Shown here piece by piece: positions 4,743 to 55,854 of a stretch of 64,000 nt of DNA. Numbering within the stretch: position 1 is the first letter of the stretch; each line of letters begins with the position of its first letter. Origin of the DNA: Candidatus Enterousia sp. GTDB lineage: Bacteria; Pseudomonadota; Alphaproteobacteria; Rs-D84. A program made the translations under genes and the position numbers. The notes below the pieces were generated by a model. The model did not search any database, was not told where the DNA came from, and worked only from the letters and a program-made list of their open reading frames with translations. The stretch covers positions 74,533 through 138,532 of the forward strand of contig JAZQCG010000002.1 of NCBI GenBank assembly GCA_045546155.1, read 5' to 3'.

Positions 4743-6017
4743 ATGTCATTGGTCGCCCCGATTTTAAACGATGTTCAAATTTCTGCGTTTAATGCAATTG
4801 AGCGCACAAATTCTAATATTTTAATTCTGGGCCAGGCAGGAACAGGAAAGTCTACTTTTATAAATTATTTAAAAAGCGCATCAAAAAAACGCATCATTTG
4901 TGCGTGCCCGACGGCGGTTTCTGCATTAAATATTGGTGGGCAAACGATTCATTCACTGTTTCAAATTCAACCCCGCGATTTTATTATGCCTGAATTGTTA
5001 AAGTTAAAGGCAAAACCCCGCAACATATTAAATGCCACAGACGTACTAATTATTGATGAAATATCAATGGTTGCCCCAGATTTATTGGATGCAATTGATA
5101 TATTGGCGCGTATGGCACGACATAATAATGCCCCATTTGGTGGAATCCAGGTCATAGCAATCGGCGATTTGTTCCAATTGCCACCCGTTATAACGCGGGA
5201 TGCGATGGGTTACTATGAAACAGCGTACGAGCACCCCAACGCGTATTTCTTTGACAGCAATGTTTATAAGCGCGCTAATTTTATGCGTTTTAGTTTTGAT
5301 ATGGTATATCGTCAAAGTGATGGCGCGCTGTTGGAAAGCCTGACCAGATTGCGTAATCGTGATGTGGATGTATTGGATTTCTTTAACAGTTGCAAGATAG
5401 AAGATTTAGAACGTCGTGCAAATGCTGTTTTGATTACACCGTTTCGTGATACAGCTGAACGAATAAATGCATCACGTCTGGCCCAGATTAATTCGCCCGA
5501 GATAACATATACAGGAACGTTGACTGGTACTTTCTTGGAACGTGATGTGCCGGCCCCGTTAAATTTGACACTAAAAATTGGTGCATTGGTTGTTTTTGTA
5601 AAAAATAGTGACAAGTGGCACAATGGTTCAATGGGTATTGTGCGTTCGATGTCTGCACGCGATATAACTGTTCAGTTGCTGTCCGATAATCGTGAAATCG
5701 TAACGGTAAAGCCTGAAAAATGGGAAAAAATAGAATATAGCCGTGATGAAAACGATCGGATTGTTGAAAACGAAGTAGGGGGGTATAAACAGTTTCCATT
5801 AAACTTGGGATACGCCATGACCATACACAAGGCCCAGGGAAAAACACTGGATGCAGTGGTTGTTGATATGTCGCGTGGTGCGTTTACACACGGACAAACC
5901 TATGTCGCGCTATCGCGCACGCGCAGTGCCACAGACATGCATGTTGCATCGCCCCTGCGCCCACGTGATGTTATTTTTGATAATCGTGTTTTGGATTTTG
6001 TTTCTTCTGCTGTCTAA
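4743..6017 (+). CDS. Pif1/RecD-family P-loop DNA helicase
   Basis: Walker A GQAGTGKST. C-terminal helicase motifs YAMTIHKAQGKTLD and GQTYVALSRTRS. 424 aa. Confidence 0.7.
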   Translation: MSLVAPILNDVQISAFNAIERTNSNILILGQAGTGKSTFINYLKSASKKRIICACPTAVSALNIGGQTIHSLFQIQPRDFIMPELLKLKAKPRNILNATDVLIIDEISMVAPDLLDAIDILARMARHNNAPFGGIQVIAIGDLFQLPPVITRDAMGYYETAYEHPNAYFFDSNVYKRANFMRFSFDMVYRQSDGALLESLTRLRNRDVDVLDFFNSCKIEDLERRANAVLITPFRDTAERINASRLAQINSPEITYTGTLTGTFLERDVPAPLNLTLKIGALVVFVKNSDKWHNGSMGIVRSMSARDITVQLLSDNREIVTVKPEKWEKIEYSRDENDRIVENEVGGYKQFPLNLGYAMTIHKAQGKTLDAVVVDMSRGAFTHGQTYVALSRTRSATDMHVASPLRPRDVIFDNRVLDFVSSAV

Positions 6018-7035
6018 GGTCTGCTATCATATTTTTAAAGAACCAGTCGCCGTTTGCCTTCAGCATGTCAAAATTGACCCCGTCTCCGGATACCAGGTCA
6101 CGAATACTTGATACTGGGCGACCGGCCGTCCGCATGGCATTAACAATTGCATTACGTTCCGCTGCCATTAAAACCAATCCATCTTCTGTTAGGGTCTCGG
6201 GGTTTGTTAGTCCTTCGTTATCATGTTCCTTGGCCAGTTTTGTGCTTATTTCGCCAGCTGCGAATAAATTTGCGCCGGCCACCGAAAAATAAGATGGATA
6301 TAAATCAAATGAATTGTCATACGCATATTCTGAAAAGCGATTGTGTAAGTTCATTTTAGTGTCTGATGCAGACGCGAACGACAGTGTCGTAAAACGTGGA
6401 TGTTCCAGCGGTGTGATTGGTCCATGCTGAATAACAATAATATTTTTTTGAATTTGTTTAATTTCATCTGGTGTGTATCCCATCTGGGTCATGACATCTG
6501 CCATATATTCCCCCAGTATTGTTATCGCAGCCGCCCCGTGCGAGTGTGCATAGAATCGAACATTTGATGCACGTTGCGCCGCTATGCTTGCGGGCACGCG
6601 GGTGCTTTCAGCACCCGATACTAGTATCGGGTTTAATATGATATTGCCCAGTTGTTTGATATAATTCGGAACAGGTTCTGTTTCTGACATGTGGGCGATA
6701 TTTTTATCAATATCTTGGATACTGCGTGTCAGATTTCTAATTTTGTGTCCCGCTGCTCGAAACAGTTGCACGCGTTCAGATTCTGTATCACGTGATCCAA
6801 AATCATAATATATTGAATAAATATCAACGTCTGAAATGTTTGCCCCGCCAAGCACGCTTTTCATTTGTTTAATATAATGATTGGCATAGCGCGGAATACC
6901 CGTTAATTCGCCGCCGAACACAACAATAAGTGGTCGATTTGGATTAATAGAATCAACCGTTATCACACCGTATTCATTGTCCGGTGTTTTTGGTACAGAT
7001 TTTATAACATGTGCGCTACTTGGCTTGTATTCCAT
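5971..7035 (-). CDS. hypothetical alpha/beta-hydrolase-like protein (lipase-type AHSHG nucleophile elbow)
   Basis: 354-aa ORF with FYAHSHGAA (AxSxG) motif. Its 3' end overlaps the convergent helicase gene by 47 nt. Confidence 0.45.
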   Translation of the reverse strand: MEYKPSSAHVIKSVPKTPDNEYGVITVDSINPNRPLIVVFGGELTGIPRYANHYIKQMKSVLGGANISDVDIYSIYYDFGSRDTESERVQLFRAAGHKIRNLTRSIQDIDKNIAHMSETEPVPNYIKQLGNIILNPILVSGAESTRVPASIAAQRASNVRFYAHSHGAAAITILGEYMADVMTQMGYTPDEIKQIQKNIIVIQHGPITPLEHPRFTTLSFASASDTKMNLHNRFSEYAYDNSFDLYPSYFSVAGANLFAAGEISTKLAKEHDNEGLTNPETLTEDGLVLMAAERNAIVNAMRTAGRPVSSIRDLVSGDGVNFDMLKANGDWFFKNMIADLRQQKKQNPKHDYQK

Positions 7036-7040
7036 ATTTT

Positions 7041-7442
7041 TTATATATCCTTTCGCATCATTATGGCATCAACGCCGTCATAGTACCCTGGGCGTGTGCC
7101 GATTTCCACGTATCCGTTGCTTTTATACAACGTGCGTGCCGGTGTGTTATCCGCCGCCACCTCTAAGAATATATGTTTTACATCGCGTTTTTTCAAGTCG
7201 CCTTCAACAATCCCCAACATTGCCGCTGCAATACCTGTGCGACGTGCATCAGGTGCAACACCAATTGTAATTATTTCTGCTTCGTCGGCAACGGCCCGAT
7301 ATACAATAAAACCATTTTGACTTGCAATAATTTCGCATCCAGATTTTTGCAAATCAGCAAAGTCCGCCACCCCCCACGGTTTGTGCGGAAAACATTTGGC
7401 GTGTAATTCGGCCAGGCTACCAAATAAGTTTTCGTTCGGCAA
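7041..7442 (-). CDS. rimI: ribosomal-protein-alanine N-acetyltransferase (GNAT)
   Basis: GNAT fold motifs. Sits next to tsaB, as in the canonical arrangement. Confidence 0.8.
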   Translation of the reverse strand: MPNENLFGSLAELHAKCFPHKPWGVADFADLQKSGCEIIASQNGFIVYRAVADEAEIITIGVAPDARRTGIAAAMLGIVEGDLKKRDVKHIFLEVAADNTPARTLYKSNGYVEIGTRPGYYDGVDAIMMRKDI

Positions 7443-7463: not shown

Positions 7464-7811
7464 TTAACGTTTGCGTACAAAAGCGCGATTGTTAAAGTTT
7501 TTCTTTAATTGCGTCTTTGCGATTTGCGCTTCGTGTTTTGCACACAGTGTGTTATAGACGCTTTGTGCGGTACTGTCGCTAAATTCTAATTTGTTTCCAT
7601 TTATATTTATTTTCAAAATATATTTTGATATAGCATGTGTGTGCTTGTTTTTAACTGCGTATACTGCGATTCCAATATTCTTGGCATCAATGTAATAGCA
7701 GTGCACAACAATATTCTTGCTTGGGCCTGAATTGTTTGTGTACACAACAGGTTTTGTTTTTATCGTTGTTGTGATTAAGTCGTTGTATTCTTTAAAAGCG
7801 TCTTGTGTCAT
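7464..7811 (-). CDS. hypothetical basic/Lys-rich protein inserted between tsaB and rimI
   Basis: ORF 7464..7871 trimmed to internal Met (MTQDAFKEY) to avoid overlap with tsaB. No recognisable domain. Confidence 0.35.
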   Translation of the reverse strand: MTQDAFKEYNDLITTTIKTKPVVYTNNSGPSKNIVVHCYYIDAKNIGIAVYAVKNKHTHAISKYILKININGNKLEFSDSTAQSVYNTLCAKHEAQIAKTQLKKNFNNRAFVRKR

Positions 7812-7812
7812 A

Positions 7813-8361
7813 TTATTCTTCTTTTTGTTTGTTTTGTTCTGCATAACTAGGGCGCAGGTACATTGGTACAACTGGCTCTGTATTTCCTGCAGTTATTTTC
7901 TGTTTTACGATGTTTACACCCAACCTCAAATCAAAAGGTTTGTGACCGACCGTTCGTGGCCAAGCCATTTGTTTTGTCTCTAATTCTTCGATTTCCATTG
8001 TGCACGGGGCCAGGCCCGGTGCCGCAACAAAGAAATCGCCACGTCCAGAATCCAGCGCAACAAACGCATCTGGTGTTGCTGCTAAATACAGGTCGAATAA
8101 ACTAATTCCGACAACTGGAATTTTTAATCCCATTGCCAGCCCTTTGGCATATGCGATGCCTAGGCGGATGCCGGTAAAACTGCCTGGGCCAACCACAATA
8201 CCAATCGCGGATAAATCAGACCATTTTGCGCCGCACTCAGACATAAATTTTTCACATTCGGTTGGCAACGCAACCGACTGTTTTTCCACCGCAACAGACT
8301 TGTATTTATCTTCTAATACAAATTCCAGATTCCCACCCGATGTATTAATAATTAAAATCAT
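7813..8361 (-). CDS. tsaB: tRNA threonylcarbamoyladenosine biosynthesis protein TsaB (YeaZ)
   Basis: MILIINTSGG...GPGSFTGIRLGIAYAKGLA, the inactive Kae1-paralog signature. Confidence 0.8.
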   Translation of the reverse strand: MILIINTSGGNLEFVLEDKYKSVAVEKQSVALPTECEKFMSECGAKWSDLSAIGIVVGPGSFTGIRLGIAYAKGLAMGLKIPVVGISLFDLYLAATPDAFVALDSGRGDFFVAAPGLAPCTMEIEELETKQMAWPRTVGHKPFDLRLGVNIVKQKITAGNTEPVVPMYLRPSYAEQNKQKEE

Positions 8362-8720
8362 TTTTGTTTGTCCTTTAATTCGTGCAACAAATCCCAAAAA
8401 CAGTGTGAAATCGTTCCGTAATTTATTTTACTTTTAGATGTTTCGTTATCAAAGACATACGATTGATACTGTTTAAAGGGCGGATAAGACTTAGGCATTT
8501 TGGTTTCTATAACACGTATTGTATACTTTTTACTGCGTGCTATAACAACGGTTTCTAGCATACCTGGATGTTGCGAGTTCTGTATGCGTGTAAAAAAATG
8601 CCATTTATTGGTGTTGGCATAGTCCGCCACAGAATTAAAGAAATCAATCTGTTCTTGCCCGTCGCCAAACACGACGGCTTCAATTGGTCTGCCGTTAAGT
8701 ACTACTATATCTGTTTTCAT
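8358..8720 (-). CDS. hypothetical protein (120 aa), translationally coupled between the Lon-like gene and tsaB
   Basis: 4-nt overlaps at both ends (8717/8720 and 8358/8361). No similarity to the Lon S16 peptidase domain. Confidence 0.45.
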   Translation of the reverse strand: MKTDIVVLNGRPIEAVVFGDGQEQIDFFNSVADYANTNKWHFFTRIQNSQHPGMLETVVIARSKKYTIRVIETKMPKSYPPFKQYQSYVFDNETSKSKINYGTISHCFWDLLHELKDKQK

Positions 8721-10474
8721 ATGCGTGCCCCAAATCCAATTTTCTTTGAAAATCCAGCCGTCTGGCGCACAGATAACAATTCATCGATTTTATCGCATGT
8801 AAATTCAGTGCGCACATCTTCGGCATTGTTTTCCAATAACGCGCGTCGCAAGATTGCGGTTAATTCGCGCTGTAATTGGCGCACGCCCTGTTCGGATGTA
8901 TAGTTTTGAATAATATGACGGATTGCATCATCAGATATAACGATGTTTTCCATATTCCATCCGGTGTCACGCGCCGCGCGCTTGATTAAATGTTCACGTG
9001 CAATCTGAACTTTTTCTTCGGTCGAGTATCCTGGGATTTCAATGATTTCCATACGGTCTTTTAACGCGTTTGATAGATTCAAACTGTTTGCAGTTGCAAT
9101 AAACAAAACGTTTGATAAATCAAAGTCAACCTCCAAATAATGGTCACGGAAAGCCTTGTTTTGTTCCGGGTCCAGAATTTCTAGTAACGCAGATTCTGGG
9201 TCGCCGCGCCAATCGCGTCCCATTTTATCGATTTCATCTAAAACGATAACTGGATTATTTGATTTACAGCGCTTTAACGCATCCATGATGCGTCCCGTTT
9301 GTGCACCGATATAAGTTTTGCGATGACCACGGAAATGCGCTTCATCTGACACCCCGCCCAGGGATATTCGCTGATATTTGCGTCCCAGTGCTGTTGCGAT
9401 TGATTTCCCCAGTGATGTTTTCCCAACACCTGGCGCACCAACAAAGCATAAAATCGATCCCTGATTAGATTTAGTCTTTTTCATAACCGCAATGTGTTCT
9501 AAAATGCGTTCTTTGACACCGCGCATGCCCGAGTGTTCAGAATCCAGAACCCCACGCGCCACGCTTAAATCAATTTGCGATTTATCAGATTTGTTCCATG
9601 GCATCGCCAATAATTCATCCAGATAGGTCTTTAATAAACCGCCTTCGTTTGACATTGGTGACATAGATTTCATACGCTTCCACTCTGCCAGTGCTTTTTC
9701 TTTAGCATCGCGGGGCAGGTGGGATTTTTCAATCCGTTTGCGAATGTTTTCTGTATCCATTTCCAAGTCGTCTTCACCCATTTCGCGTTGGATAGCGCGC
9801 ATTTTTTCTTGCAAGATTGCCTCGCGTCGACCTTTTTCCATTTGCTGATGGATACGTTTGTTAATAGATTCTTCTATTTTTGCTGTTTCCACCACCAGGT
9901 TTACTTGTTCCAAAAGGATGATTAGCTTTTCCCGCCACGATGTCGCCCCCAATATTTTCAAGGCAGGCTCGACATCCATTTCAATTGCTTGGACAACAAA
10001 ATCTATAAATGCTGGTAATGGATAGTTTGCAACAACATTGCGCAGCTTTTCAATTTTGAATTTCTTTGTTCCGGCCAAAAATTGCATGTTTTCTGCGATT
10101 CTATCACGCAGTGCAATTGTTTGCTCGTGGTTTGTATCATCTTGGATTGCGATTGTTTCAACATCCCCAACAAAGATGCCGTCTTCGGTAACGACGTTGC
10201 TAATTTTGACCGCATCTGTTGTATGAACAATTGCATGTACTGCGCCATCTGGCATGCGCAAAATTTGAACAATGTCGCCAATTGTTCCAATATCATAAAT
10301 GTCCTTTGGGCTGGATGGATAATTCCATGTGCGCTGCGCCACCAATACCAATCGCTGCCCCGTCTTGCCAGCGGATTCAATACACGTGATGGATGTTTTG
10401 TTATCGATGAACACCGGTACAGTCAGTCCCGGATGCACCACAAAGTCGCGAAACGGTAAAATATATTCTTTCAT
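8717..10474 (-). CDS. Lon-like ATPase: LonA-type N-terminal substrate-binding domain plus AAA+ module, with no S16 peptidase domain
   Basis: Walker A GAPGVGKTS, Walker B VIVLDEIDK, sensor motifs, and a Lon N-domain (PFRDFVVHPGLTVPVFI). The protein ends at ...KKIGFGARI, where the protease domain would begin. Confidence 0.8.
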   Translation of the reverse strand: MKEYILPFRDFVVHPGLTVPVFIDNKTSITCIESAGKTGQRLVLVAQRTWNYPSSPKDIYDIGTIGDIVQILRMPDGAVHAIVHTTDAVKISNVVTEDGIFVGDVETIAIQDDTNHEQTIALRDRIAENMQFLAGTKKFKIEKLRNVVANYPLPAFIDFVVQAIEMDVEPALKILGATSWREKLIILLEQVNLVVETAKIEESINKRIHQQMEKGRREAILQEKMRAIQREMGEDDLEMDTENIRKRIEKSHLPRDAKEKALAEWKRMKSMSPMSNEGGLLKTYLDELLAMPWNKSDKSQIDLSVARGVLDSEHSGMRGVKERILEHIAVMKKTKSNQGSILCFVGAPGVGKTSLGKSIATALGRKYQRISLGGVSDEAHFRGHRKTYIGAQTGRIMDALKRCKSNNPVIVLDEIDKMGRDWRGDPESALLEILDPEQNKAFRDHYLEVDFDLSNVLFIATANSLNLSNALKDRMEIIEIPGYSTEEKVQIAREHLIKRAARDTGWNMENIVISDDAIRHIIQNYTSEQGVRQLQRELTAILRRALLENNAEDVRTEFTCDKIDELLSVRQTAGFSKKIGFGARI

Positions 10475-10535: not shown

Positions 10536-10568
10536 AAAAAAATCCCCCGTCTGGGGGACTTTTTTTAA
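10536..10568 (-). terminator. rho-independent terminator (CCCCC-gtct-GGGGG hairpin plus T-run)
   Basis: Hairpin seen in sequence downstream of the small membrane protein gene. Confidence 0.6.
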
Positions 10569-10801
10569 CGACGACGGTTGTGACCGCCAAAACTGCCATG
10601 TTGGGCGCTGTTGCTGGAACGTTTTGATAAATAACGTGCTGCAATTAAAACCAGCCATTCTAACGACAAAGCCGCCAAGCCCATCAATGTATTTTCAATA
10701 CCGTTCATCCAACCCAATACATAAACCAATTGGGCAACAAAAGAAATGTATAAAACACCGAAAATACCGGTAAAGAATACTTTTTTGATTTTTCCAAACA
10801 T
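10565..10801 (-). CDS. small membrane protein (78 aa, two predicted TM helices)
   Basis: Hydrophobic segments. The ORF is followed by a terminator. Confidence 0.4.
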   Translation of the reverse strand: MFGKIKKVFFTGIFGVLYISFVAQLVYVLGWMNGIENTLMGLAALSLEWLVLIAARYLSKRSSNSAQHGSFGGHNRRR

Positions 10802-20793: not shown

Positions 20794-22539
20794 ATGTTAT
20801 TTGGTAAAAAGTCTGGAATTAAAAACCGCAATCGTGAACGTTACGAGCGTATACGCCGCCTGATGTGGATTAAGTGCGCAGCATGCGGCAAGCTGGTTTA
20901 TTACAAAGACTACAAAGAAAATTTATACATATGCCCACATTGCAAGCGTGCATTTATAATGTCGCCTAAGCAGCGGTTTAATTTACTGTTTGATAATCAT
21001 GCGTGGGAAAAATTAACGTTGCCAACAACGTCTGATGACCCGCTGGGGTTTGTTGATCGTATGCCGTATACCGAACGCCTTGAAGAAGCGCGCACAGACA
21101 CTGGGTGCAATGATGCGGTTACAACCGCAGACGGCACAATTGGCGATGTGCCATCGACGGTGTGTGTGCTAAATGGCGATTTTATGATGGGGTCAATGGG
21201 GCGTGCCGCCGGCGATGGAATTATTGCTAGTATTGAGCATGCAATTGAAACCAAGCGCCCGTTTATCATGGTCGTGGCCAGTGGTGGCGCACGTATGCAG
21301 GAAAACATCTTGTCGCTAATGCAAATGGCGCGTACAACAGCGGCGGTTAATAAATTACATGAAAATAAAATACCATACATTGTTTTATTAACAGATCCAA
21401 CATATGGCGGTGTGACGGCATCTTTTGCGATGCTGGGCGATATTCATATCGCTGAATCTGGGGCGCGTATCGGTTTTGCTGGACGTCGCGTAATTGAACA
21501 GAATATTCGTGAAAAATTACCATCTAATTTCCAGACAGCTGAATATTTGTATGAACATGGTATGGTTGATATGGTTGTTCCGCGTATGGATTTGCATGAT
21601 GTAATTGCGAAAATCTTGGCGGTGTTGACCAAACAGCCACGCGAACCAAAACAGATTAATGTCGCCACCCCGGATTATGATACGTCTAAAAAGATTCGTG
21701 GTATGGGCGAAAACGATGCCTATGACAAAGTATTGCTGGCACGACATGAAAATCGTCCGCATTTCTTGGATTATATAAATGGCATTGTTGATGATTGGAC
21801 ATACTTGGCGGGCGATCGCCTGTATGCCGAAGATCCAGCCATGGCATCTGGGATTGGATTTTGGCGCGGTATCCCATCTGTGATTATTGGGCAAGAGCAG
21901 GGGCGCACCATTGAAACCCGTCAAAAGCATCGTTTTGGTATGGCGAACCCAGACGGCTATCGCAAGGCCCAGCGTATGATGCGTCTGGCGGAAAAGTTTG
22001 AATTGCCATTGATTTCATTGTTCGATACCGCTGGCGCATTTGCTGGCCGCGAAGGCGAAGAACGTGGTCAATCCCAAGCGGTCGCAGAATCGATGTCTGT
22101 TGGATTGTCGATTAAAACGCCATACGTCGCCGTTAACGTGGGTCAGGGCGGTTCTGGTGGTGCAATTGCGATTGGGACGGCTGATCGCGTCCTGATGCTG
22201 GAAAATGCGATTTATTCGGTAATTGCACCGGAATCTTGTGCGTCGATTTTATGGAAAGATAACAAGTTCAAGGCCACAGCTGCCGCCGCAATGAAATTGA
22301 CTGCGCGCGATATGGCAGATTTGAACGTTATTGATGAAATTATCCCAGAACCTGCCAAGGGGGCACATACCAATTGGCAAACGACAATGGAATTGTTGGC
22401 GTCTGCGGTTACAAAGCATATCCTTGAATTACAGGAAGTGCCTGCAAATGAATTACCAAACCGTCGTGCGGATAAATTCTTTGCAATGACACGCGATGTT
22501 GAGATTTTTCAACCAACCCGCGATGCCGAAGATAACTAA
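20794..22539 (+). CDS. acetyl-CoA carboxylase carboxyltransferase, fused beta (AccD, N-terminal Zn ribbon) and alpha (AccA) subunits in one 581-aa polypeptide
   Basis: N-terminus CAACGK..CPHCKRAF and the AccD body. C-terminal half matches AccA (RMMRLAEKFELPLISLFDTAGAFAGREGEERGQSQAVAES, NVGQGGSGGAIAIG). Confidence 0.8.
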   Translation: MLFGKKSGIKNRNRERYERIRRLMWIKCAACGKLVYYKDYKENLYICPHCKRAFIMSPKQRFNLLFDNHAWEKLTLPTTSDDPLGFVDRMPYTERLEEARTDTGCNDAVTTADGTIGDVPSTVCVLNGDFMMGSMGRAAGDGIIASIEHAIETKRPFIMVVASGGARMQENILSLMQMARTTAAVNKLHENKIPYIVLLTDPTYGGVTASFAMLGDIHIAESGARIGFAGRRVIEQNIREKLPSNFQTAEYLYEHGMVDMVVPRMDLHDVIAKILAVLTKQPREPKQINVATPDYDTSKKIRGMGENDAYDKVLLARHENRPHFLDYINGIVDDWTYLAGDRLYAEDPAMASGIGFWRGIPSVIIGQEQGRTIETRQKHRFGMANPDGYRKAQRMMRLAEKFELPLISLFDTAGAFAGREGEERGQSQAVAESMSVGLSIKTPYVAVNVGQGGSGGAIAIGTADRVLMLENAIYSVIAPESCASILWKDNKFKATAAAAMKLTARDMADLNVIDEIIPEPAKGAHTNWQTTMELLASAVTKHILELQEVPANELPNRRADKFFAMTRDVEIFQPTRDAEDN

Positions 22540-22541
22540 AT

Positions 22542-22572
22542 AAAAATCCCGCAATTTGCGGGATTTTTTATT
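22542..22572. terminator. terminator AAAAATCCCGCAATTTGCGGGATTTTTTATT (identical copy at 24508)
   Basis: Seen in sequence. Confidence 0.7.
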
Positions 22573-23401
22573 ATTCGCCCAACGGGCACGCATCTGAAAA
22601 TACATAAGTGCCCAGTGTGTCAAATTGTTCTACCCCAGAAGGGAAAAATAGCGCACATCCAGAAACCTGATTCGTCAAACACGACACCACATCACGTCCA
22701 ACGTATATTTTATTCTTATTTGTACAAGAATCATTAATCGTAAGTTCTGGTCTGTCTATTTCAACAAACCCAGATGGGCAATCACCTTGGGTTGGGGGTG
22801 TCCCAATATCTATTTCTGCCTCTGTTCTTACTGAGCATGCACTACTACTGGTGCTGCCGGATGATGTTGTTGTGTATCCATCTGGACAAGGTGTACAGGC
22901 AGATTGACCAGTTTTGTTGTTATAAGTGCCAATTGGGCAACTGTAACATTGTCCCGCCTTTCCATATGTTCCTGCAGCGCAAGATGTACTGCAGCTTGTA
23001 TTGTTTGTCGCTGTATTTGTTGTGCCATCTGCGCATGTGTTGCACTGCAGTTGTGTGTTTGTGGTATTTGTATAGCTTCCTTGTGGACAGCTAACACATG
23101 TTTTTTTAGAAGTGTCAAAGTACTGCCCTGCGTTACACCGGCCACACATACTAGGGTATTTTGCCACCTCAGCTGCGCCAGCTGCAAAACCATTCGACCA
23201 TGCGACACTGCATATATTTGCGCACATTGTATCATAATTGCTGAATCCTCCGGTAAAGCTGTCACATGTAGAAGTAATCTGAGTCCCAGATGGTAGTTTT
23301 GAACATGTTTCAGCCAATTCAACGCATTCATAAGCCATATAGTTAGCCTGGGCAACATTTGTTAATAAAAATACACAAAATATAAATAAAAAGCGTTTCA
23401 T
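22571..23401 (-). CDS. secreted Cys-rich protein with tandem CxxCPxGxY...C repeats (GCC2/GCC3- or ephrin-receptor-like pattern)
   Basis: Signal peptide MKRFLFIFCVFLLTNVAQA. Repeats such as CVSCPQGSYTN, CYSCPIGTYNN, CTPCPDGYTT. Confidence 0.5.
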   Translation of the reverse strand: MKRFLFIFCVFLLTNVAQANYMAYECVELAETCSKLPSGTQITSTCDSFTGGFSNYDTMCANICSVAWSNGFAAGAAEVAKYPSMCGRCNAGQYFDTSKKTCVSCPQGSYTNTTNTQLQCNTCADGTTNTATNNTSCSTSCAAGTYGKAGQCYSCPIGTYNNKTGQSACTPCPDGYTTTSSGSTSSSACSVRTEAEIDIGTPPTQGDCPSGFVEIDRPELTINDSCTNKNKIYVGRDVVSCLTNQVSGCALFFPSGVEQFDTLGTYVFSDACPLGE

Positions 23402-24507: not shown

Positions 24508-24537
24508 AAAAATCCCGCAATTTGCGGGATTTTTTTA
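24508..24537. terminator. terminator AATCCCGCAATTTGCGGGATT
   Basis: Immediately downstream of the stop of the 24535..26460 gene. Confidence 0.65.
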
Positions 24538-26460
24538 CATATTATTCTTAAGCGCTAAATATATTTGTCCTAAATCGGTTTTTAACAGGGTTGCAGCCAA
24601 TTTGTCTGCGTTGTCGGCTTCGCGTGCGCCGTTCATAATTTTATCAAAGCTGCGGACAAATTGCGTTGCCTGGGAACGAAATACTGCATCTGATTTCAAC
24701 ATATTGCGAACTTGTTTCTTGTCGGCGGCACTCATCATTTTCGCCAGCCACTTGGAAAAGATTGTTTTGTCGCCGGCATGATACTTCTTTAATACGACAT
24801 CTGGTATATCTGCGCCGGTTGCGCGTGTTAAGTCTTGGGACTGTTCATGCAGCTTTTCAAACATCTTTTCGCTTTGTGCCAAGAAGTCCGAAGAACTTAT
24901 TTTTCCAAACGATTCCATCGGTGCGGTTTTTATTGCGTCCATTGGGGCGCTTGCACGCGCAACCATCATTTGTTTGTTTAATGTCTGCATAGTGTTTACC
25001 GCTTTGGCATAATCTGACATTAAATCAATCATCTGCTGGCGTGATGTGCCGGCCAAATCTTCCAGTTTGATTGCAGATTGTGACACCGCATCGGTTGATT
25101 CATCAACCGCGGCTTTCATAAGATTAACTTTCTCGGTCAATGATGCGACAATTTTTTCCAGTCTTTCACTGGTTTCGACTGAGTCCTTGCTTAAATCGGG
25201 CAGGGCCGCATAATACTTTTCAATTAATTCAGATAATGGCTGTAACTGTGCTGTTGTGTCATTAGACATTTTAATCAGGTTTTCCGATTGTCCCGACAGC
25301 TGTGTGTGTGCCGTATTCATTTCAATCAGTGTTTCGCGTACACCTGTTGCCATTGCCTTGACCGAGTCTGAAAATGCGTTTGCGGCCCCGCGCGTGTTTT
25401 CCAATGTAATGTTCGCAACCCCAGACACTGTTTTTAGTTCAGATACAACACCCGTGGCAAATTCTTTGATTTCGCCATCGAAATGCTTGGTCAGTGTGGC
25501 GATTTCGGTTGAAATCCCGCGAACTGCGCCTTCGGTTGCACTGGCTGATGCCATCAGTTTTTCAACTGCATCGGTTAATTTGCGGATTTGTTTATCTATT
25601 GATGATTCAGCCAGGCGTACTTGGCCACCGACAACATTGGCGGTATTGGTAAGTGTGTTCATTTGGCTGGTTAATTGCTTTTTTGATTGTTTGCTAAATG
25701 TATCCATTTTATCCAAGTATCCATCCAACAATCTGTCGTTGCGTATCATTATTTCTTCATAATTTGCAGCCGAACTTTTTACATTGCTAAAACCGTCTGC
25801 AGTCGATTGGGCCAGTTCTGAAATTTTGCCAATCATTGTTTCTGATTCTGTGGTCAGATTTTTCATCTGTTCGCTATTTTTGTTGAATTCACCCCCCAGA
25901 TGTTCCGACAGGTTTTCACTGGTCGCGACCCATGAATCGATTTGTGATTGTATCTGGCTGGTACGGTTTGTGGTTTCTTGTGTTGTGTTGTTAATTTCTG
26001 ATAATAACTGATTGACAGTATTGCTAAATTTATCGGTTGCATTTTCTACATCGTGCCACGTTTCAGACTCTACTACATTGTTCAAGCCACTGACAGTATT
26101 GTCCAAACGGCCAGACATATTGGCTATCTTTTTTGTTGCTTCATCCGCCAATGAAATCAGTTTTTCGTTCTGTTCATTTAATATGTTTTTCAATTCGTCT
26201 GCAGATGCAATTTGTGCGTTTAATGTGTCGCGCATTGTGGCAAAGCTGGATTCTATTTTGGAAATTTCATCATTTAAAATCGTGCTTAACACGCGACTGG
26301 CGTCGGCAATTTTAGCACGTTCTGGTCGTGTCATAATGGTCAGCAACGATTGCATAACCTTTTGCGATTTGCGTGACACAAAAAACAGTACGACTAATGT
26401 GATAAATAATAACGCGCCCAGGATGCCCGCACCCCAGACAAACAATTGATTGATTTCCAT
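24535..26460 (-). CDS. membrane-anchored long alpha-helical/coiled-coil protein (641 aa)
   Basis: N-terminal TM segment (WGAGILGALLFITLVVLFFV) followed by a low-complexity helical region rich in S/T/N/E/K. Confidence 0.5.
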   Translation of the reverse strand: MEINQLFVWGAGILGALLFITLVVLFFVSRKSQKVMQSLLTIMTRPERAKIADASRVLSTILNDEISKIESSFATMRDTLNAQIASADELKNILNEQNEKLISLADEATKKIANMSGRLDNTVSGLNNVVESETWHDVENATDKFSNTVNQLLSEINNTTQETTNRTSQIQSQIDSWVATSENLSEHLGGEFNKNSEQMKNLTTESETMIGKISELAQSTADGFSNVKSSAANYEEIMIRNDRLLDGYLDKMDTFSKQSKKQLTSQMNTLTNTANVVGGQVRLAESSIDKQIRKLTDAVEKLMASASATEGAVRGISTEIATLTKHFDGEIKEFATGVVSELKTVSGVANITLENTRGAANAFSDSVKAMATGVRETLIEMNTAHTQLSGQSENLIKMSNDTTAQLQPLSELIEKYYAALPDLSKDSVETSERLEKIVASLTEKVNLMKAAVDESTDAVSQSAIKLEDLAGTSRQQMIDLMSDYAKAVNTMQTLNKQMMVARASAPMDAIKTAPMESFGKISSSDFLAQSEKMFEKLHEQSQDLTRATGADIPDVVLKKYHAGDKTIFSKWLAKMMSAADKKQVRNMLKSDAVFRSQATQFVRSFDKIMNGAREADNADKLAATLLKTDLGQIYLALKNNM

Positions 26461-36517: not shown

Positions 36518-37475
36518 GTGTGCAATAATTTTATTATGGTAAAAATAAAAGCAGATACATATTTAGCGTTTCAACGTGCGACCAATCCAAAGATGGCTGA
36601 AAAAGACTATTTGGAATGTCTTGTGCTGGAAAAATTATTCCAAGATGAATATGTTTCTAAAAACCTTGTGTTTGCTGGTGGTGCATCTGTGACCAAGGCG
36701 TATAATATAAGCAACCGTATCGGCCAAGATATTGATTTGGCATGTTCTGATTTCAAGGATATTCCCGATAATCGTTCCAAGAAAAAATTAAATACATTTC
36801 GCAGAGATTTCAAAGCCTATGTTTTCGAAGTAATTAGACCCGCCATCAACAATATTATTAACCAAGACTCGCAATTCATGATATTGACTGATCGTGGATT
36901 GGCATGCACTTGAAAACAAAGAACACTTTATGTCATCGCCCACTTTGCATTTGCTATACAATTCTAAATGCGGCCCAGAAATGGGGCATTTATGTATTGA
37001 AATAATCCCACGCAAATACATGCCAGATACAATTCAATATCGTTCTGTTGTGCCATATTCGGTGGGTAAACCGATGGGCAATATTCCAACGGTTGCGTAT
37101 GAGCAAACTTTTTGGGACAAGGTCTATGCCTTGCACTCAAATGCTTTGTCGTCCGCACCACATTTCGACGAAGGGTTTTCGCGCCATTATTATGATGTCG
37201 CGACATTGGCGCAATATGTCGATTTAGACAAAACATATCACATGTTCAGTGACATAGAAGCGCACCAGAAAAAGTACACTACCAAAGATTTACCAGACGT
37301 AAAAAGTCCATCAGACATTATCCTACTGCCCGATGGCAAAACATTGCATGGGTTGGACACGGATTATCAATCAATCGGCAACGCATTTAATGCGCCACGT
37401 GAAAGCTGGGCTGAAATTGTTCAAATGCTAATCGCGCTGTCGCACAGATTAAAAAATATACAAGGGGGACGTTAA
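36518..37475 (+). pseudogene. AbiEii/AbiGii-family nucleotidyltransferase (type IV TA / abortive-infection toxin family), split by a frameshift near 36894..36913
   Basis: N-terminal ORF carries LVFAGGASVTKAYNISNRIGQDIDLAC (NTase GG..D.D motif). The C-terminal body continues in another frame (36894..37475, GTG-initiated in the ORF track). Confidence 0.55.
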
Positions 37476-37477
37476 AT

Positions 37478-38002
37478 ATGGCTATATACGTATTCTCAGA
37501 TCCGCATTTTGATTCAGAAAAAATTATCGCAAATGGCGAACGTCCGTTTCGCAATGTTGCGCACATGAATAAAACACTGATTGAAAATTATAATTCAGTG
37601 GTTCAAAAGCAAGATATTTGTTATTGGCTGGGGGATGTTATGTATGATGCATCCAAAGAAAAAGTTGCAGCAATATTGCGCCAATTACGCGGTCGCAAAT
37701 ATTTAATCCTTGGGAATCACGATCGTGGACATTCTGAAAAATGGTGGCTAGATGCAGGGTTTGACAAGGTGTTTTCGCATCCTGTTTATATCGCAACGCA
37801 ATATATAATGCTATCGCACGAACCACTGGAAGAATTTGGCAAATCATATCCAATTGCAAATATTCATGGCCATATTCATATCCAAGACTATGACTTTAAA
37901 AATCATGACCAGTGCATAAATGTATCGGTGGAAAAGACAGGGTACAAGCCTGTTTTAATGCAAAATCCATTTATTAAAAAACTTCGCGAATTTAGCAAAT
38001 AA
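37478..38002 (+). CDS. calcineurin-like metallophosphoesterase
   Basis: DPHFD, GDVMYD, GNHD, HGHIH motifs. RBS AAGGGGGA. 3-nt gap after the AbiEii-like gene. Confidence 0.7.
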   Translation: MAIYVFSDPHFDSEKIIANGERPFRNVAHMNKTLIENYNSVVQKQDICYWLGDVMYDASKEKVAAILRQLRGRKYLILGNHDRGHSEKWWLDAGFDKVFSHPVYIATQYIMLSHEPLEEFGKSYPIANIHGHIHIQDYDFKNHDQCINVSVEKTGYKPVLMQNPFIKKLREFSK

Positions 38003-41497: not shown

Positions 41498-43231
41498 TTA
41501 TTTCTGGCGTCCACGCAACATATCTGCCAATGGTTCTACGATATAAGAATTACGCTGTTTATCAACATTGGCTAATTTCGTCCCCAGTATTTCCAATTGT
41601 GGCGACCATACTGCATATTTTTCAATATACTGACGTGCCATTTCTGGATTTTTTGACAACTGAATATCAATCACATCGCGCAACATTTTTTTACCACGTG
41701 CGACAACTGCATCAAAATCTATGACTAAACGATTTGATGAATCCAGACGAATTGCACCACACTCAAATAACATATTATGTTGCATAATATTGCGTTTTGC
41801 ATGGGCGCGACTAAAATTTGCACCCGGATATAAATAAGCAATCAACCATGATGTAATCAGCTCTTGTTTTTGATTTGGTGTAAAGAATCCAGCACGCACC
41901 AATTCGTCTAGCATCGCAATCGAGCCTGCATCTGCCTTGTGTTCTTCGATAATATTTTTATATTCGCCCAGTGCTTCCAGATCATCTTTTGGGCCTAACG
42001 TATGCATGTTTTCGTGCAAAATTGTAAAGTCGTGCAGGGCACGCACCGAAAAATATTTATGAAATTCCGGTGCCAGCAATGCATTAATCTTTTCATCCAT
42101 CCCATTGCCATATTTGCACTGGCGCATTTGTTTTAAATAGACTGTCCGATGACCACCGCCTGTTTGAACCGCTAATTTATCTGCATTAGGCAGGTTAAAC
42201 GCCAATGTTATCTGGCTACGATATGCCGCATTGTGTCCGCTAACCGATACGACATCAACGTCGACCATTGTTTGTTTTGTGTTTGTCCCCAGGACCTGTT
42301 TGTATTCATCTGCGCGTGGCATTTTGGATGCCAGCATGGGCAGATATTGTTTTATTTTTAACAAATAATCCGTGCCGGCCGTATCGACAATACCAACCGT
42401 CGCCCCCAAGTTGTCTTTTGCATATGGTGTAATTCCGCGCGCATCCAACATAGATTTTAATTTTGGATTTTGTAATACTGTCGGCGTCATCGCATCGTCA
42501 TAGCATTCGCGCCCCAGTGTAAATTCCAATGGCCCCGATTGAAGGGTTGCCCATTTTTTGTCGGCTTCACAATCAGCCCATGGCCAGTAATTCATCAATG
42601 CTGCGGATTGCAGTGTCAGATATTCTTTGAAATCGAAATTTTCCGTGCTTACAGCGGCGGCCTGTAATGCATGTGCTGCCGAACGAAAATCAAATTTGAA
42701 CGCATTTGTATAATCAACAGCTTTCAATTCATCGCCAAAACGCTTTACAATGGTGCGTTGATTTAATATTTCACGTACTTCTTCATCCTTATAGCCGCTT
42801 TCCAACATACGAATTAAAATGTCATGAAATTCATCAACTGATAAATTATATGGATACAAACCGCGTCCCAAACGAGGCTCAACATCATTGGTTAATGCAA
42901 CCGGTGCGCCTGATTTTTCATGTGCAAATATTCCGCGTTGCCCACGAAATAATTTCTGCGTTAATTTTATATCTTTAAAGGATTGGCGCGATTCTAGAAA
43001 CAGTTCAAAATCTAAATTATAAGGATGGTCCAGTTGTAACGCCACACGATCGATAATATCAGACGCGCGCACCAACCATTTTAATGCAGTTTTTTCCCGT
43101 TCGGGCAGGGCATTGTATTGTTCCGCATCAACACCCAACATAGTGTATGGTGTAAAGGCTTCGGGCGATGTACGCTGAACCAATTCATTATGATCATATG
43201 CAATTTTATACAAACGTCTTATCATTGACAT
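41498..43231 (-). CDS. HExxH zinc-metallopeptidase-like protein (577 aa; HENMH plus downstream EEHKAD, reminiscent of the M49/DPP-III zinc-binding pair)
   Basis: Motifs seen in sequence. Last gene of a five-gene coupled operon. Confidence 0.45.
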   Translation of the reverse strand: MSMIRRLYKIAYDHNELVQRTSPEAFTPYTMLGVDAEQYNALPEREKTALKWLVRASDIIDRVALQLDHPYNLDFELFLESRQSFKDIKLTQKLFRGQRGIFAHEKSGAPVALTNDVEPRLGRGLYPYNLSVDEFHDILIRMLESGYKDEEVREILNQRTIVKRFGDELKAVDYTNAFKFDFRSAAHALQAAAVSTENFDFKEYLTLQSAALMNYWPWADCEADKKWATLQSGPLEFTLGRECYDDAMTPTVLQNPKLKSMLDARGITPYAKDNLGATVGIVDTAGTDYLLKIKQYLPMLASKMPRADEYKQVLGTNTKQTMVDVDVVSVSGHNAAYRSQITLAFNLPNADKLAVQTGGGHRTVYLKQMRQCKYGNGMDEKINALLAPEFHKYFSVRALHDFTILHENMHTLGPKDDLEALGEYKNIIEEHKADAGSIAMLDELVRAGFFTPNQKQELITSWLIAYLYPGANFSRAHAKRNIMQHNMLFECGAIRLDSSNRLVIDFDAVVARGKKMLRDVIDIQLSKNPEMARQYIEKYAVWSPQLEILGTKLANVDKQRNSYIVEPLADMLRGRQK

Positions 43232-53414: not shown

Positions 53415-55793
53415 TTATTCACCACTGTTTGTTTTCGCCACATAGCACATATTGTTTTCAAAATACCCTCCCAACATAGAACACTGTTGCTTATACCAAG
53501 TATCCGAAAGTGTGCATGTCTGGCTACTGTCGTTCCATGTTGCGATTGGTGTTTCACCTTCTGTATTGCTGGTTAAGCATTGAACATAGGCCGTGTTTTC
53601 TACACAAATACCGCCAAAATCGTCTTTATTGGGTGTTTCACCCCCAAAAGCGACCTTTGTAAACGCAGGTAACCAATTTGTCATTTCTTCAAAACCCTTT
53701 GCCTCAGCGGAATACCAAATTCCTTCAAGATCTTCGCACATGGTTGACATTTGACCTTCCAAATCGTCAACCACATCTTCCACAGAAACTTGTAATTTTT
53801 GCCGTACTGTTGTTGCCAAATTACCATATGTTTTTTCCGTTTTTGTTGGATCTGAACAATTTGTTATGGCGTACGCTACAAGTGTTTTGGCTAAATTTTT
53901 ACCAGGATTCGAACCATCATAACTATCCACAAAGACACCATTTGTATTCAATCCCAATTTACGACATTTCCACGGATACCCCATCTCACCTGACTCGGGC
54001 GTACATAATTCTTCTACATACGCATCAATTGCATCTTCGCAACCTTCGGCTACACGCGTATTATCAACATTATCAACAAAACTTAACAAGGCTGTCAAAC
54101 CACACGTTGCGCCATTGCTTATACGACCACTACCATCAAATTCGCAGGCTGAATTTTCCGTCTCATTACCATACAGTGCTGCACACGCAACAACCTTATC
54201 TTTACACATTGCTTTTGCAGCATACGCACTTATTGCCCCCGCCGCTTTTGATGTTGTGTCATCAAAGTCCTTTAAGGCCCCAGATTGAGTATCATAACAC
54301 TCCTTCATCGTAGAAACACAAGACATACGAACAGATTCCAATTTTTCTTCTTGGGCCTGGGAAATTTCAATCAATGCTGCGCGTTTAAATTCTGTCCAAA
54401 CCAAATCAGAAATATCACGACATGAATCCAAGGCTGTTGTCGCAAACATTTTGCGTTCATCTAAAAATTTTGCGAACGTATCGTTTTGTCCCAGAACATC
54501 AGCGCTTTGACCATCTAAATTTATCAAATCTGCCAACTGGAACAAACGCGCGGTATAAATGGGCTCACCCGTTGTCTGATTGATAAACGCCCCCGTAGGA
54601 TCTAAACAACGCTTATAGTTTGCGCCACAGGCGGTATCCGCCAACATTGCAGAACGCACCTTGTCTAAACACTCGTTTACGTCCTGGGAATTATGGGCAC
54701 GATATTCTTCCAATCGCGCTTCACGCAAGATTTTTTCAGCCTGGCGAACTGTATTTTGAACCTGTTGACGCTTGGCATCAATGCTTCTTTCATATGCATT
54801 ACAATCCTGGGTAATCATGATGCCATATGCACTTTTTGCCATGTTTGCAACCGCACCACTGGGGCAATTATCTGCAACCATTTCTGCGCACTGTTTGTGT
54901 ACCTGGGTAAATAAATCACCACCTTCCAGGCTTGCAAAGTCAACTTCGTTTGCGCCGCCAAATATAGATGATGACGAACCACCCCAAACGTCCCCAATAT
55001 CAGCCGAAAAATCCAACGACATTACACCCAGCGACGTAGAACTAGATGAATTTGATGCTTTCTTCTTGCCAGAAATCAAATCACCGATTTCCGCCAACAG
55101 TTTTGCCGCACCACTGGTATCATTTTTAATTGCCGCTTCACCAACCGTGGCGGAATACATTGCGTCAACTTCTGCTGCGGTCTTGTCAACCGCGTTCAGG
55201 TTGTTATCTTCAAATTGTTGCAATAAAACCTTTGCCTGGTCCAGGGCATCTTCGGTATCACGAAAACCTGTAAAACGGTCACTACAGAAACAGCGCCGAT
55301 ATGTATCATTGGCCTTGGCACAGAATTGATCCATACATGTCGCATATGCTTCACGACATTGAGCATAACCACCACCAATCTTGGACACATCATCAAAAAC
55401 AGCCGTCGCACGTGACATTTGTGCACGGGACACACCCGTACGCGCAACATTTACCGCGCTGCGCACTGGGGCAACTGCGGAACGTGCACTGCGCGCCATT
55501 GTGGTCGCACTGCGTGAAATAGTTTTTGCGTTGCGCGCGTTACGCGATGCGGTTACCGTCCCCGCACGTGATGCAACCGTCGGGGTTGCCGCCGCACGCG
55601 AGGTTGTTGTTGTGCGTGCCGCCATTGCACGTGGTGTGCCAGACACATCGCCACGCTTTACGTCGCGCCCCGCCGCGCGTGCCGGCGCGATATTACCCGC
55701 CACCGCCGCACGTGAATTTTGTGGACCAACTGCATCCGCCGAACCAGCCACCAAAAAAGCCGCCATCAGCGCAGAAAACCGGAAAATTTTATT
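53415..55793 (-). CDS. large secreted Cys-rich protein with N-terminal Ala/Arg/Thr-rich low-complexity region (GC-rich DNA, 55400..55760)
   Basis: Signal peptide MNKIFRFSALMAAFLVAGSADA. CRExxxxC...C.C module shared with the 16236..17487 protein. Confidence 0.5.
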   Translation of the reverse strand, partial: NKIFRFSALMAAFLVAGSADAVGPQNSRAAVAGNIAPARAAGRDVKRGDVSGTPRAMAARTTTTSRAAATPTVASRAGTVTASRNARNAKTISRSATTMARSARSAVAPVRSAVNVARTGVSRAQMSRATAVFDDVSKIGGGYAQCREAYATCMDQFCAKANDTYRRCFCSDRFTGFRDTEDALDQAKVLLQQFEDNNLNAVDKTAAEVDAMYSATVGEAAIKNDTSGAAKLLAEIGDLISGKKKASNSSSSTSLGVMSLDFSADIGDVWGGSSSSIFGGANEVDFASLEGGDLFTQVHKQCAEMVADNCPSGAVANMAKSAYGIMITQDCNAYERSIDAKRQQVQNTVRQAEKILREARLEEYRAHNSQDVNECLDKVRSAMLADTACGANYKRCLDPTGAFINQTTGEPIYTARLFQLADLINLDGQSADVLGQNDTFAKFLDERKMFATTALDSCRDISDLVWTEFKRAALIEISQAQEEKLESVRMSCVSTMKECYDTQSGALKDFDDTTSKAAGAISAYAAKAMCKDKVVACAALYGNETENSACEFDGSGRISNGATCGLTALLSFVDNVDNTRVAEGCEDAIDAYVEELCTPESGEMGYPWKCRKLGLNTNGVFVDSYDGSNPGKNLAKTLVAYAITNCSDPTKTEKTYGNLATTVRQKLQVSVEDVVDDLEGQMSTMCEDLEGIWYSAEAKGFEEMTNWLPAFTKVAFGGETPNKDDFGGICVENTAYVQCLTSNTEGETPIATWNDSSQTCTLSDTWYKQQCSMLGGYFENNMCYVAKTNSGE

Positions 55794-55854
55794 CATTGAA
55801 TCTTTCACTTTGCTTCTCTCTTAGGTCTATTCTACCATTTTTTTGGTATTTGAA

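Follow-up and report, generated by a model that had tools for sequence, protein, structure and literature searches.

What can a Lon protein do without a protease? Lon is the textbook AAA+ protease, with motor and peptidase in one chain, and its protease-independent role as a chaperone has so far been studied only with engineered active-site mutants. The question is raised by a lon-like gene in a 64-kb window (the whole stretch of DNA analysed here, on which all positions are numbered) from Candidatus Enterousia sp., whose 585-residue product is a LonA-derived AAA+ ATPase with no S16 peptidase domain. On the strength of sequence comparisons and structure models we consider it probable, at roughly 0.7, that this protein is a functional ortholog of LonA that has lost the protease domain, works as an unfoldase or remodelling chaperone and is held by strong purifying selection.

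The 585-residue protein has no Pfam match to the Lon peptidase domain (Lon_C, PF05362), and the NCBIfam model TIGR00763 'lon' aligns to it at model positions 2–567 of 795 only, scoring 560 bits, below the 608-bit cut-off. The S16 Ser-Lys dyad domain with its DGPSAG motif is absent from the protein and has no remnant in any frame; tblastn searches with six Lon_C domains against all frames of the window and of five related truncated-Lon loci returned nothing (best E value 0.15). Residues 5–548, by comparison, align to Escherichia coli Lon with an E value of 3.2e-133, all ATPase and pore motifs being kept (Walker A GAPGVGKTS, pore loop TYIGA, Walker B VLDEIDK, sensor-1 ATANS and arginine finger DRMEII in the AAA+ core), and the AlphaFold2 (AF2) model superposes on LonA structures, its AAA+ part fitting Protein Data Bank (PDB) entry 6n2i at a root-mean-square deviation of 2.4 Å (TM-score TMt 0.90). 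These results bear out an initial annotation, made from the sequence, that had described a 585-residue product with the Lon N-domain and a complete AAA+ module but no S16 domain, and had held that no protease coding sequence was hidden in another frame. It had also placed the stop exactly where DGPSAG should start, and here the alignment corrects it: the protein, which ends ...SKKIGFGARI, breaks off partway through the first beta-strand of the peptidase domain, long before the catalytic-serine motif DGPSAG, its IGF aligning with the V/I-G-V/I of ...VGxxxGLAWT. Without the peptidase domain, proteolysis in cis by this protein would be impossible.

The truncated form is neither rare nor variable in length. 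The best 120 protein clusters (76–99% identity, from many independent assemblies) are all 574–610 residues long and nearly all 585–588; an exhaustive search of 1.84 billion representatives yielded distant members that likewise have no Lon_C (P0132, 593 residues, 54% identity; P0133, 580 residues, 51%), and genomes in GTDB add the truncated members of loci L020, L021 and L022, the last of these assigned to 'Candidatus Enterousia sp.'. Among the 'short' matches of 550–690 residues that the search of representatives returned, most are not true truncations but fragments produced by contig ends or frameshifts. All family members, from 99% down to about 50% identity, end at the same alignment position, and no truncated member has lost any of the ATPase and pore motifs (Walker A, Walker B, pore-loop tyrosine, sensor-1, arginine finger, sensor-2). 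When the window was compared with the 92%-identical ortholog in the related locus L103, the ratio of non-synonymous to synonymous substitution rates (dN/dS) of the lon-like gene was 0.040 at a dS of 1.15 (0.009 in the AAA+ module, residues 311–480; 0.05 in residues 1–200), against 0.031 for obg and 0.032 for that of rubrerythrin. None of the signs of a pseudogene (relaxed selection, variable truncation points, disabled motifs) was found. The initial annotation had offered two options, a proteolytically dead Lon-like unfoldase or chaperone and a lon gene being eroded; the length kept between 99% and 50% identity, the dN/dS of 0.04 and the intact ATPase and pore motifs support the former and reject the latter. 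Nor can a sequencing error be hiding an in-frame protease domain, since the same open reading frame (ORF) recurs in hundreds of independent assemblies.

In neighbour-joining trees the truncated proteins are monophyletic, and their sister group consists of full-length Lons with Lon_C (P0136 and P0301–P0305; 47–49% identity), followed by P0306 and P0307. In locus L018 the full-length lon (P0303, with Lon_C) has tsaB and rimI directly after it, and close by lie dnaE and secA, two genes that the window also contains; in locus L019 the full-length lon (P0306) is followed by an ORF of 165 codons and then by hupB, which is the classical lon–hup context. Since the closest full-length Lons share the lon–tsaB–rimI locus or adjoin hupB, the lon-like gene is, judged by gene order, the positional ortholog of canonical lon. 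We infer that the peptidase domain was deleted once, cleanly and long ago, at the lon–tsaB–rimI locus in the ancestor of Rs-D84 and Candidatus Enterousia.

Two complete protease-less Lons were also seen outside the Enterousia family, at 38–39% identity: P0226 (615 residues; locus L100, 2905–4752; next gene convergent; tail ...HVGFSVRAQ) and P0261 (623 residues; locus L102, 6001–7872, GCA_965296355.1; 4-nucleotide overlap with tgt; tail ...AVKGFNA). A metagenome scan with P0226 gave only relatives at ≤48% identity, and among the 157 further Lon loci checked from that scan and from a genome scan none was cleanly truncated.

Candidatus Enterousia and its order Rs-D84 are gut Alphaproteobacteria with genomes of 0.75–1.0 Mb and with no tricarboxylic acid cycle or respiratory chain (PMC12306168), and genomes of this size make a second lon paralog less likely. 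One candidate for such a paralog was rejected: an 831-residue 'endopeptidase La [Alphaproteobacteria bacterium]' occurs in the same ruminant metagenomes, and this Lon family belongs to a different organism, because the GC content of its contigs is 0.32–0.33 against 0.425 in the window. Accession-number proximity tied no 831-residue Lon record to the truncated-Lon lineage.

How might such a protein work? It would assemble as a Lon-type hexamer, its N-domains would bind substrates, and its conserved pore-loop tyrosine would thread them through the pore using ATP; a machine of this kind would be an unfoldase or remodelling chaperone unable to degrade alone. Its activity would be of the ATPase-dependent, protease-independent type already shown for LONP1, in which the ATPase and not the protease activity keeps DNAJA3 and mtHSP70 soluble (PMC7801493), and a preprint reports an N-domain-mediated anti-aggregation activity (bioRxiv 10.64898/2026.05.06.723147). 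As to the fate of the threaded chain, we favour its release, a chaperone-type action, at about even odds; a more tentative alternative is that the chain is passed on to a peptidase distinct from Lon, to which the invariant C-terminal [KR][KR]IGF tail would dock. Several points weigh against the reading of a protease-less Lon chaperone. That a hexamer would form without the protease ring is an assumption, the Lon trees are neighbour-joining only, and another full-length lon, or an S16 peptidase standing alone, may lie beyond the window and the related loci searched; moreover, a chaperone working by itself would give no reason why five residues of a disordered tail stay invariant while the sequences as a whole diverge by about 50%.

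That motif lies at the centre of the best-surviving rival. None of the 126 family members departs from [KR][KR]IGF, although the adjoining positions vary. The tail in which it stands is predicted to be disordered and leaves the lid on the side that the peptidase ring occupies in full-length Lon, as the docking tails of HslU and PAN also do. Phenylalanine occupies the homologous position in 0 of 216 full-length Lons, which have V/I-G-V/I and similar instead. IGF is the ClpP-docking tripeptide of Clp ATPases (PMC9035409, PMC8745299), with the consensus (L/I/V)-G-(F/L), and it acts on ClpP when grafted on an unrelated scaffold (PMC8745299). As judged from sequence and from the predicted local distance difference test (pLDDT) of the model, the lon-like tail presents this consensus on a flexible, exposed element, as a ClpP partner would, and five residues match between KIGFGA in the window and the E. 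coli ClpX loop GIGFGA. Six such tails might dock in the hydrophobic H-pockets of ClpP in the manner of the IGF loops of ClpX, with ClpP degrading the substrates that Lon selects. The independently truncated P0226, which ends in a VGF-containing tail, is consistent with this idea, and a further, weak hint comes from the transfer-messenger RNA (tmRNA) gene that lies on the same strand directly upstream of a 78-codon ORF and the lon-like gene: its tag has the classical ...AMAA end, of the type handled elsewhere by ClpXP, which hints weakly that a ClpX-type reader has been retained. In Mycoplasma, which has no ClpXP, the tmRNA tag is unusually long and is read by Lon (PMC8403727).

We nonetheless regard docking to ClpP as possible rather than likely, because neither E. 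coli ClpP nor E. coli ClpX had a tblastn match in the window or the related loci, and because known ClpP-binding loops sit on the large AAA+ subdomain and not on a C-terminal tail. Just two conservative changes would turn the ancestral V/I-G-V/I into the motif, so the likeness may be coincidence; the tail of P0261 falls outside the consensus; and the 126 sequences represent one evolutionary event. The fuller scenario, in which a peptidase-less Lon motor evolved a ClpX-like IGF tail and feeds ClpP, perhaps independently also in P0226, is to be held slightly more doubtful than docking itself.

A second rival gives the ORF of 120 codons downstream of the lon-like gene a role as dedicated partner or adaptor to the truncated Lon, or as a functional stand-in for its protease domain. 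The initial annotation had suggested that it might be a partner, and had rightly stated that only this ORF and then tsaB follow, with 4-nucleotide overlaps on both sides (ATGA is shared by the lon-like stop and the ORF start at 8720..8717, and by the ORF stop and the tsaB start at 8361..8358), and that the ORF has no similarity to the peptidase domain (hhalign probability against Lon_C, 0.1%). In favour of a partnership are the ATGA coupling at both ends, a confident AF2 model (pLDDT 88.8) and a dN/dS of 0.28–0.32, which indicates that the ORF encodes a real protein. As a general rule, however, the partnership is not backed: the ORF has only 11 homolog clusters, it is not present in L020, L022 (itself Ca. 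Enterousia sp.) or L101, and its place in L004 is taken by a barely alignable, unrelated-looking ORF of 93 codons.

Its pattern of exchange argues in the same direction. Across the ORF and about 40 nucleotides of the lon-like 3' end (~8340..8760) the DNA is 95–100% identical to that of L103, whereas the flanks are ~80–85% identical, and dS between the window and L103 is 0.044 for the ORF versus 0.7–1.1 for the flanks; against L001 its protein is 34% identical, whereas Lon is 82% identical, and the versions in other close relatives are 34–57% identical. Because identity to L103 is high relative to the flanks and identity to L001 is low relative to Lon, we interpret the ORF as a cassette and not as a co-evolving subunit; it is an exchangeable, recently recombined element and a later, clade-specific insertion outside the core machine. 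Taken with the lack of Lon_C similarity, this makes a dedicated partnership unlikely. The ORF has no match in Pfam, NCBIfam or PHROGs, and Foldseek against the PDB gave no Lon match and nothing at E ≤ 0.001. The possibility that it is a remnant of Lon_C was also tried and rejected, tblastn and hhalign being negative and a single junction-spanning match with an E value of 0.69 not being reproduced.

More improbable again is a split Lon, in which the peptidase domain would have a gene of its own at another site and would join up again with the N-AAA+ protein, possibly via the tail. A conserved tail needs a partner, and this would supply one, but no Lon_C gene stands beside the truncated gene in six of six lineages (the window, L001, L004, L020, L022 and L101), none lies within the 64-kb window, and limited literature searches found no split LonA. 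That the gene is a decaying lon pseudogene, or its truncation an assembly or sequencing error, can be dismissed with near certainty, since the absence of the S16 domain is the sole point for it and it is opposed by more than 120 clusters of the same ORF length from independent assemblies and studies, by the low dN/dS and intact motifs, by the lack of any out-of-frame Lon_C signal, and by downstream genes that abut directly (the gap from stop to tsaB is 11 nucleotides in L022 and 3 in L101).

The features of the locus are collected in Table 1.

Table 1. The lon-like locus of the Candidatus Enterousia sp. window: genes, protein domains and sequence signals (res, residues of the lon-like protein).
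Feature	Positions	Strand	Description or basis
rimI-type GNAT acetyltransferase	7041..7442	-	Pfam
115-aa variable ORF between tsaB and rimI	7464..7811	-	ORF calling and comparison with L103
tsaB, start at the ATG of MILIINTSGG	7813..8361	-	TIGR03725
120-aa ORF	8358..8720	-	Translationally coupled on both sides; clade-specific insertion, recently recombined; confident novel fold (model)
lon-like gene	8717..10474	-	585-aa LonA-derived AAA+ ATPase, no S16 peptidase domain
C-terminal tail, res 570-585	8720..8767	-	Predicted disordered, AF2 pLDDT 30-35
KKIGF, res 577-581, candidate docking motif	8732..8746	-	[KR][KR]IGF core invariant in family
Lon lid (small AAA+ subdomain), res 504-548	8831..8965	-	Pfam PF22667, E 7.4e-14; sensor-2 GVRQLQRE
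AAA+ core, res 342-478	9041..9451	-	Pfam AAA, E 3.9e-22
Lon N-terminal substrate-binding domain, res 5-191	9902..10462	-	Pfam PF02190 LON_substr_bdg, E 3.7e-25
Promoter-like site just upstream of the lon-like start codon	10484..10511	-	Consensus match only
Terminator-like GC hairpin and T-run after the 78-aa ORF	10544..10558	-	Sequence pattern
78-aa small hydrophobic ORF (MFGKIKKVFF...)	10565..10801	-	Upstream of the lon-like gene
Two-piece alphaproteobacterial tmRNA (ssrA), tag ANDNVRLAMAA	10840..11220	-	Rfam RF01849, 144 bits

Upstream of the lon-like gene, the tmRNA is of the permuted two-piece form and was missed by ARAGORN but detected with the Rfam model. It occupies the same position in L001, L004 and L022, the tag has been kept in all three and in L103 as well, and no tmRNA was found in the L018 or L020 loci. 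An ORF of 76–109 codons occurs at the position of the 78-codon ORF in L001–L006, L022 and L103–L104, and in the window the terminator-like hairpin and the promoter-like site stand between this ORF and the lon-like gene. On the downstream side, the 115-codon ORF shares 69.6% amino acid identity with its counterpart in L103 and is far more variable than the housekeeping genes around it; an ORF of 354 codons after rimI (5971..7035, minus strand), with no Pfam match and 30% identity to its L103 counterpart, is likewise more variable than its housekeeping neighbours, and in L022 an unrelated ORF of 127 codons sits between tsaB and rimI. Proteins of 1400–3600 residues with Flg_new repeats adjoin the operon in related loci.

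Elsewhere in the window, a single ORF of 581 codons (20794..22539, plus strand) joins an AccD-type zinc ribbon and carboxyltransferase to an AccA domain and looks like a fused accD–accA, and the adjacent coordinates 22571..23401 (minus strand) encode a 276-residue protein with an Ephrin_rec_like cysteine-rich repeat (PF07699, E value 5e-16), which is unusual in bacteria. An AbiEii-like nucleotidyltransferase toxin of a type IV toxin–antitoxin system (PF08843, E value 2.7e-9) is encoded at 36894..37475 (plus strand), in a genome of <1 Mb, and is adjoined by an ORF of 174 codons (37478..38002). Three minus-strand ORFs of 797, 641 and 577 codons (53415..55808, 24535..26460 and 41498..43231, respectively) have no Pfam match at E ≤ 1e-5.

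The lon-like protein is a natural subject for the study of what Lon can do when it does not degrade. Throughout a whole bacterial order, it appears, canonical lon has long been retained minus its peptidase and has been as tightly constrained as obg, and such long retention shows that the N-domain and motor have a fitness value of their own. No described protease-less LonA was found in the literature searched, a limited body and thus weak evidence of novelty. Should the tail indeed dock to ClpP, Lon substrate selection would be coupled to the Clp peptidase in a natural Lon–ClpP chimeric protease, and pairings of unfoldase and peptidase would prove to be rewirable in evolution by a few residues; this would also bear on annotation, since the Prokaryotic Genome Annotation Pipeline (PGAP) of NCBI now names the relatives of this protein 'AAA family ATPase [Alphaproteobacteria bacterium]'.

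Among known systems, the protein is closest to LonA itself (E. coli Lon, PDB 6u5z; MEROPS S16), which it resembles in the N-domain, the coiled-coil helix, the AAA+ module and the lid; it differs in being without the whole S16 Ser-Lys peptidase domain (~200 residues), in place of which it ends in a 16-residue disordered tail with an invariant IGF. With ClpX (and ClpA and ClpC) it would share the plan of a hexameric AAA+ unfoldase without a peptidase of its own, the hexamer being presumed here, and it carries IGFG(A) on a flexible element; it belongs, however, to a different AAA+ clade, its motif lies in the C-terminal tail of the lid whereas theirs is in a large-subdomain loop, and its docking to ClpP is putative. 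HslU and the PAN, Rpt and Mpa ATPases dock the C-terminal tails of their small AAA+ subdomains into their peptidase. The candidate docking element of the lon-like protein is also a C-terminal tail, whereas the motifs of those ATPases are others (HbYX, GQYL, the HslU C-terminus) and serve other peptidases. ClpB and Hsp104 are, as the lon-like protein would be, AAA+ unfoldases without a peptidase, and PMC6722904 likens the coiled-coil region of LonA to the ClpB M-domain, but the lon-like protein has a single AAA+ ring of the Lon clade and shows no sign of coupling to DnaK. The likeness to mitochondrial LONP1 and Pim1 would lie in a function that needs the Lon ATPase and not the protease; in those proteins, however, mutation was used to inactivate a protease domain that is still there, whereas here the domain has been naturally removed. 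LonC, described in PMC3391209 as a Lon-like protease without ATP-powered unfolding, and the plant 'iLON' proteins, which consist of the LON domain only (PMC8889267), are, with the protein described here, all natural Lon derivatives, each minus one of three activities: in LonC the motor is gone and the protease remains, iLON has only the N-domain, and the lon-like protein of Candidatus Enterousia keeps the N-domain and the motor and loses the protease.

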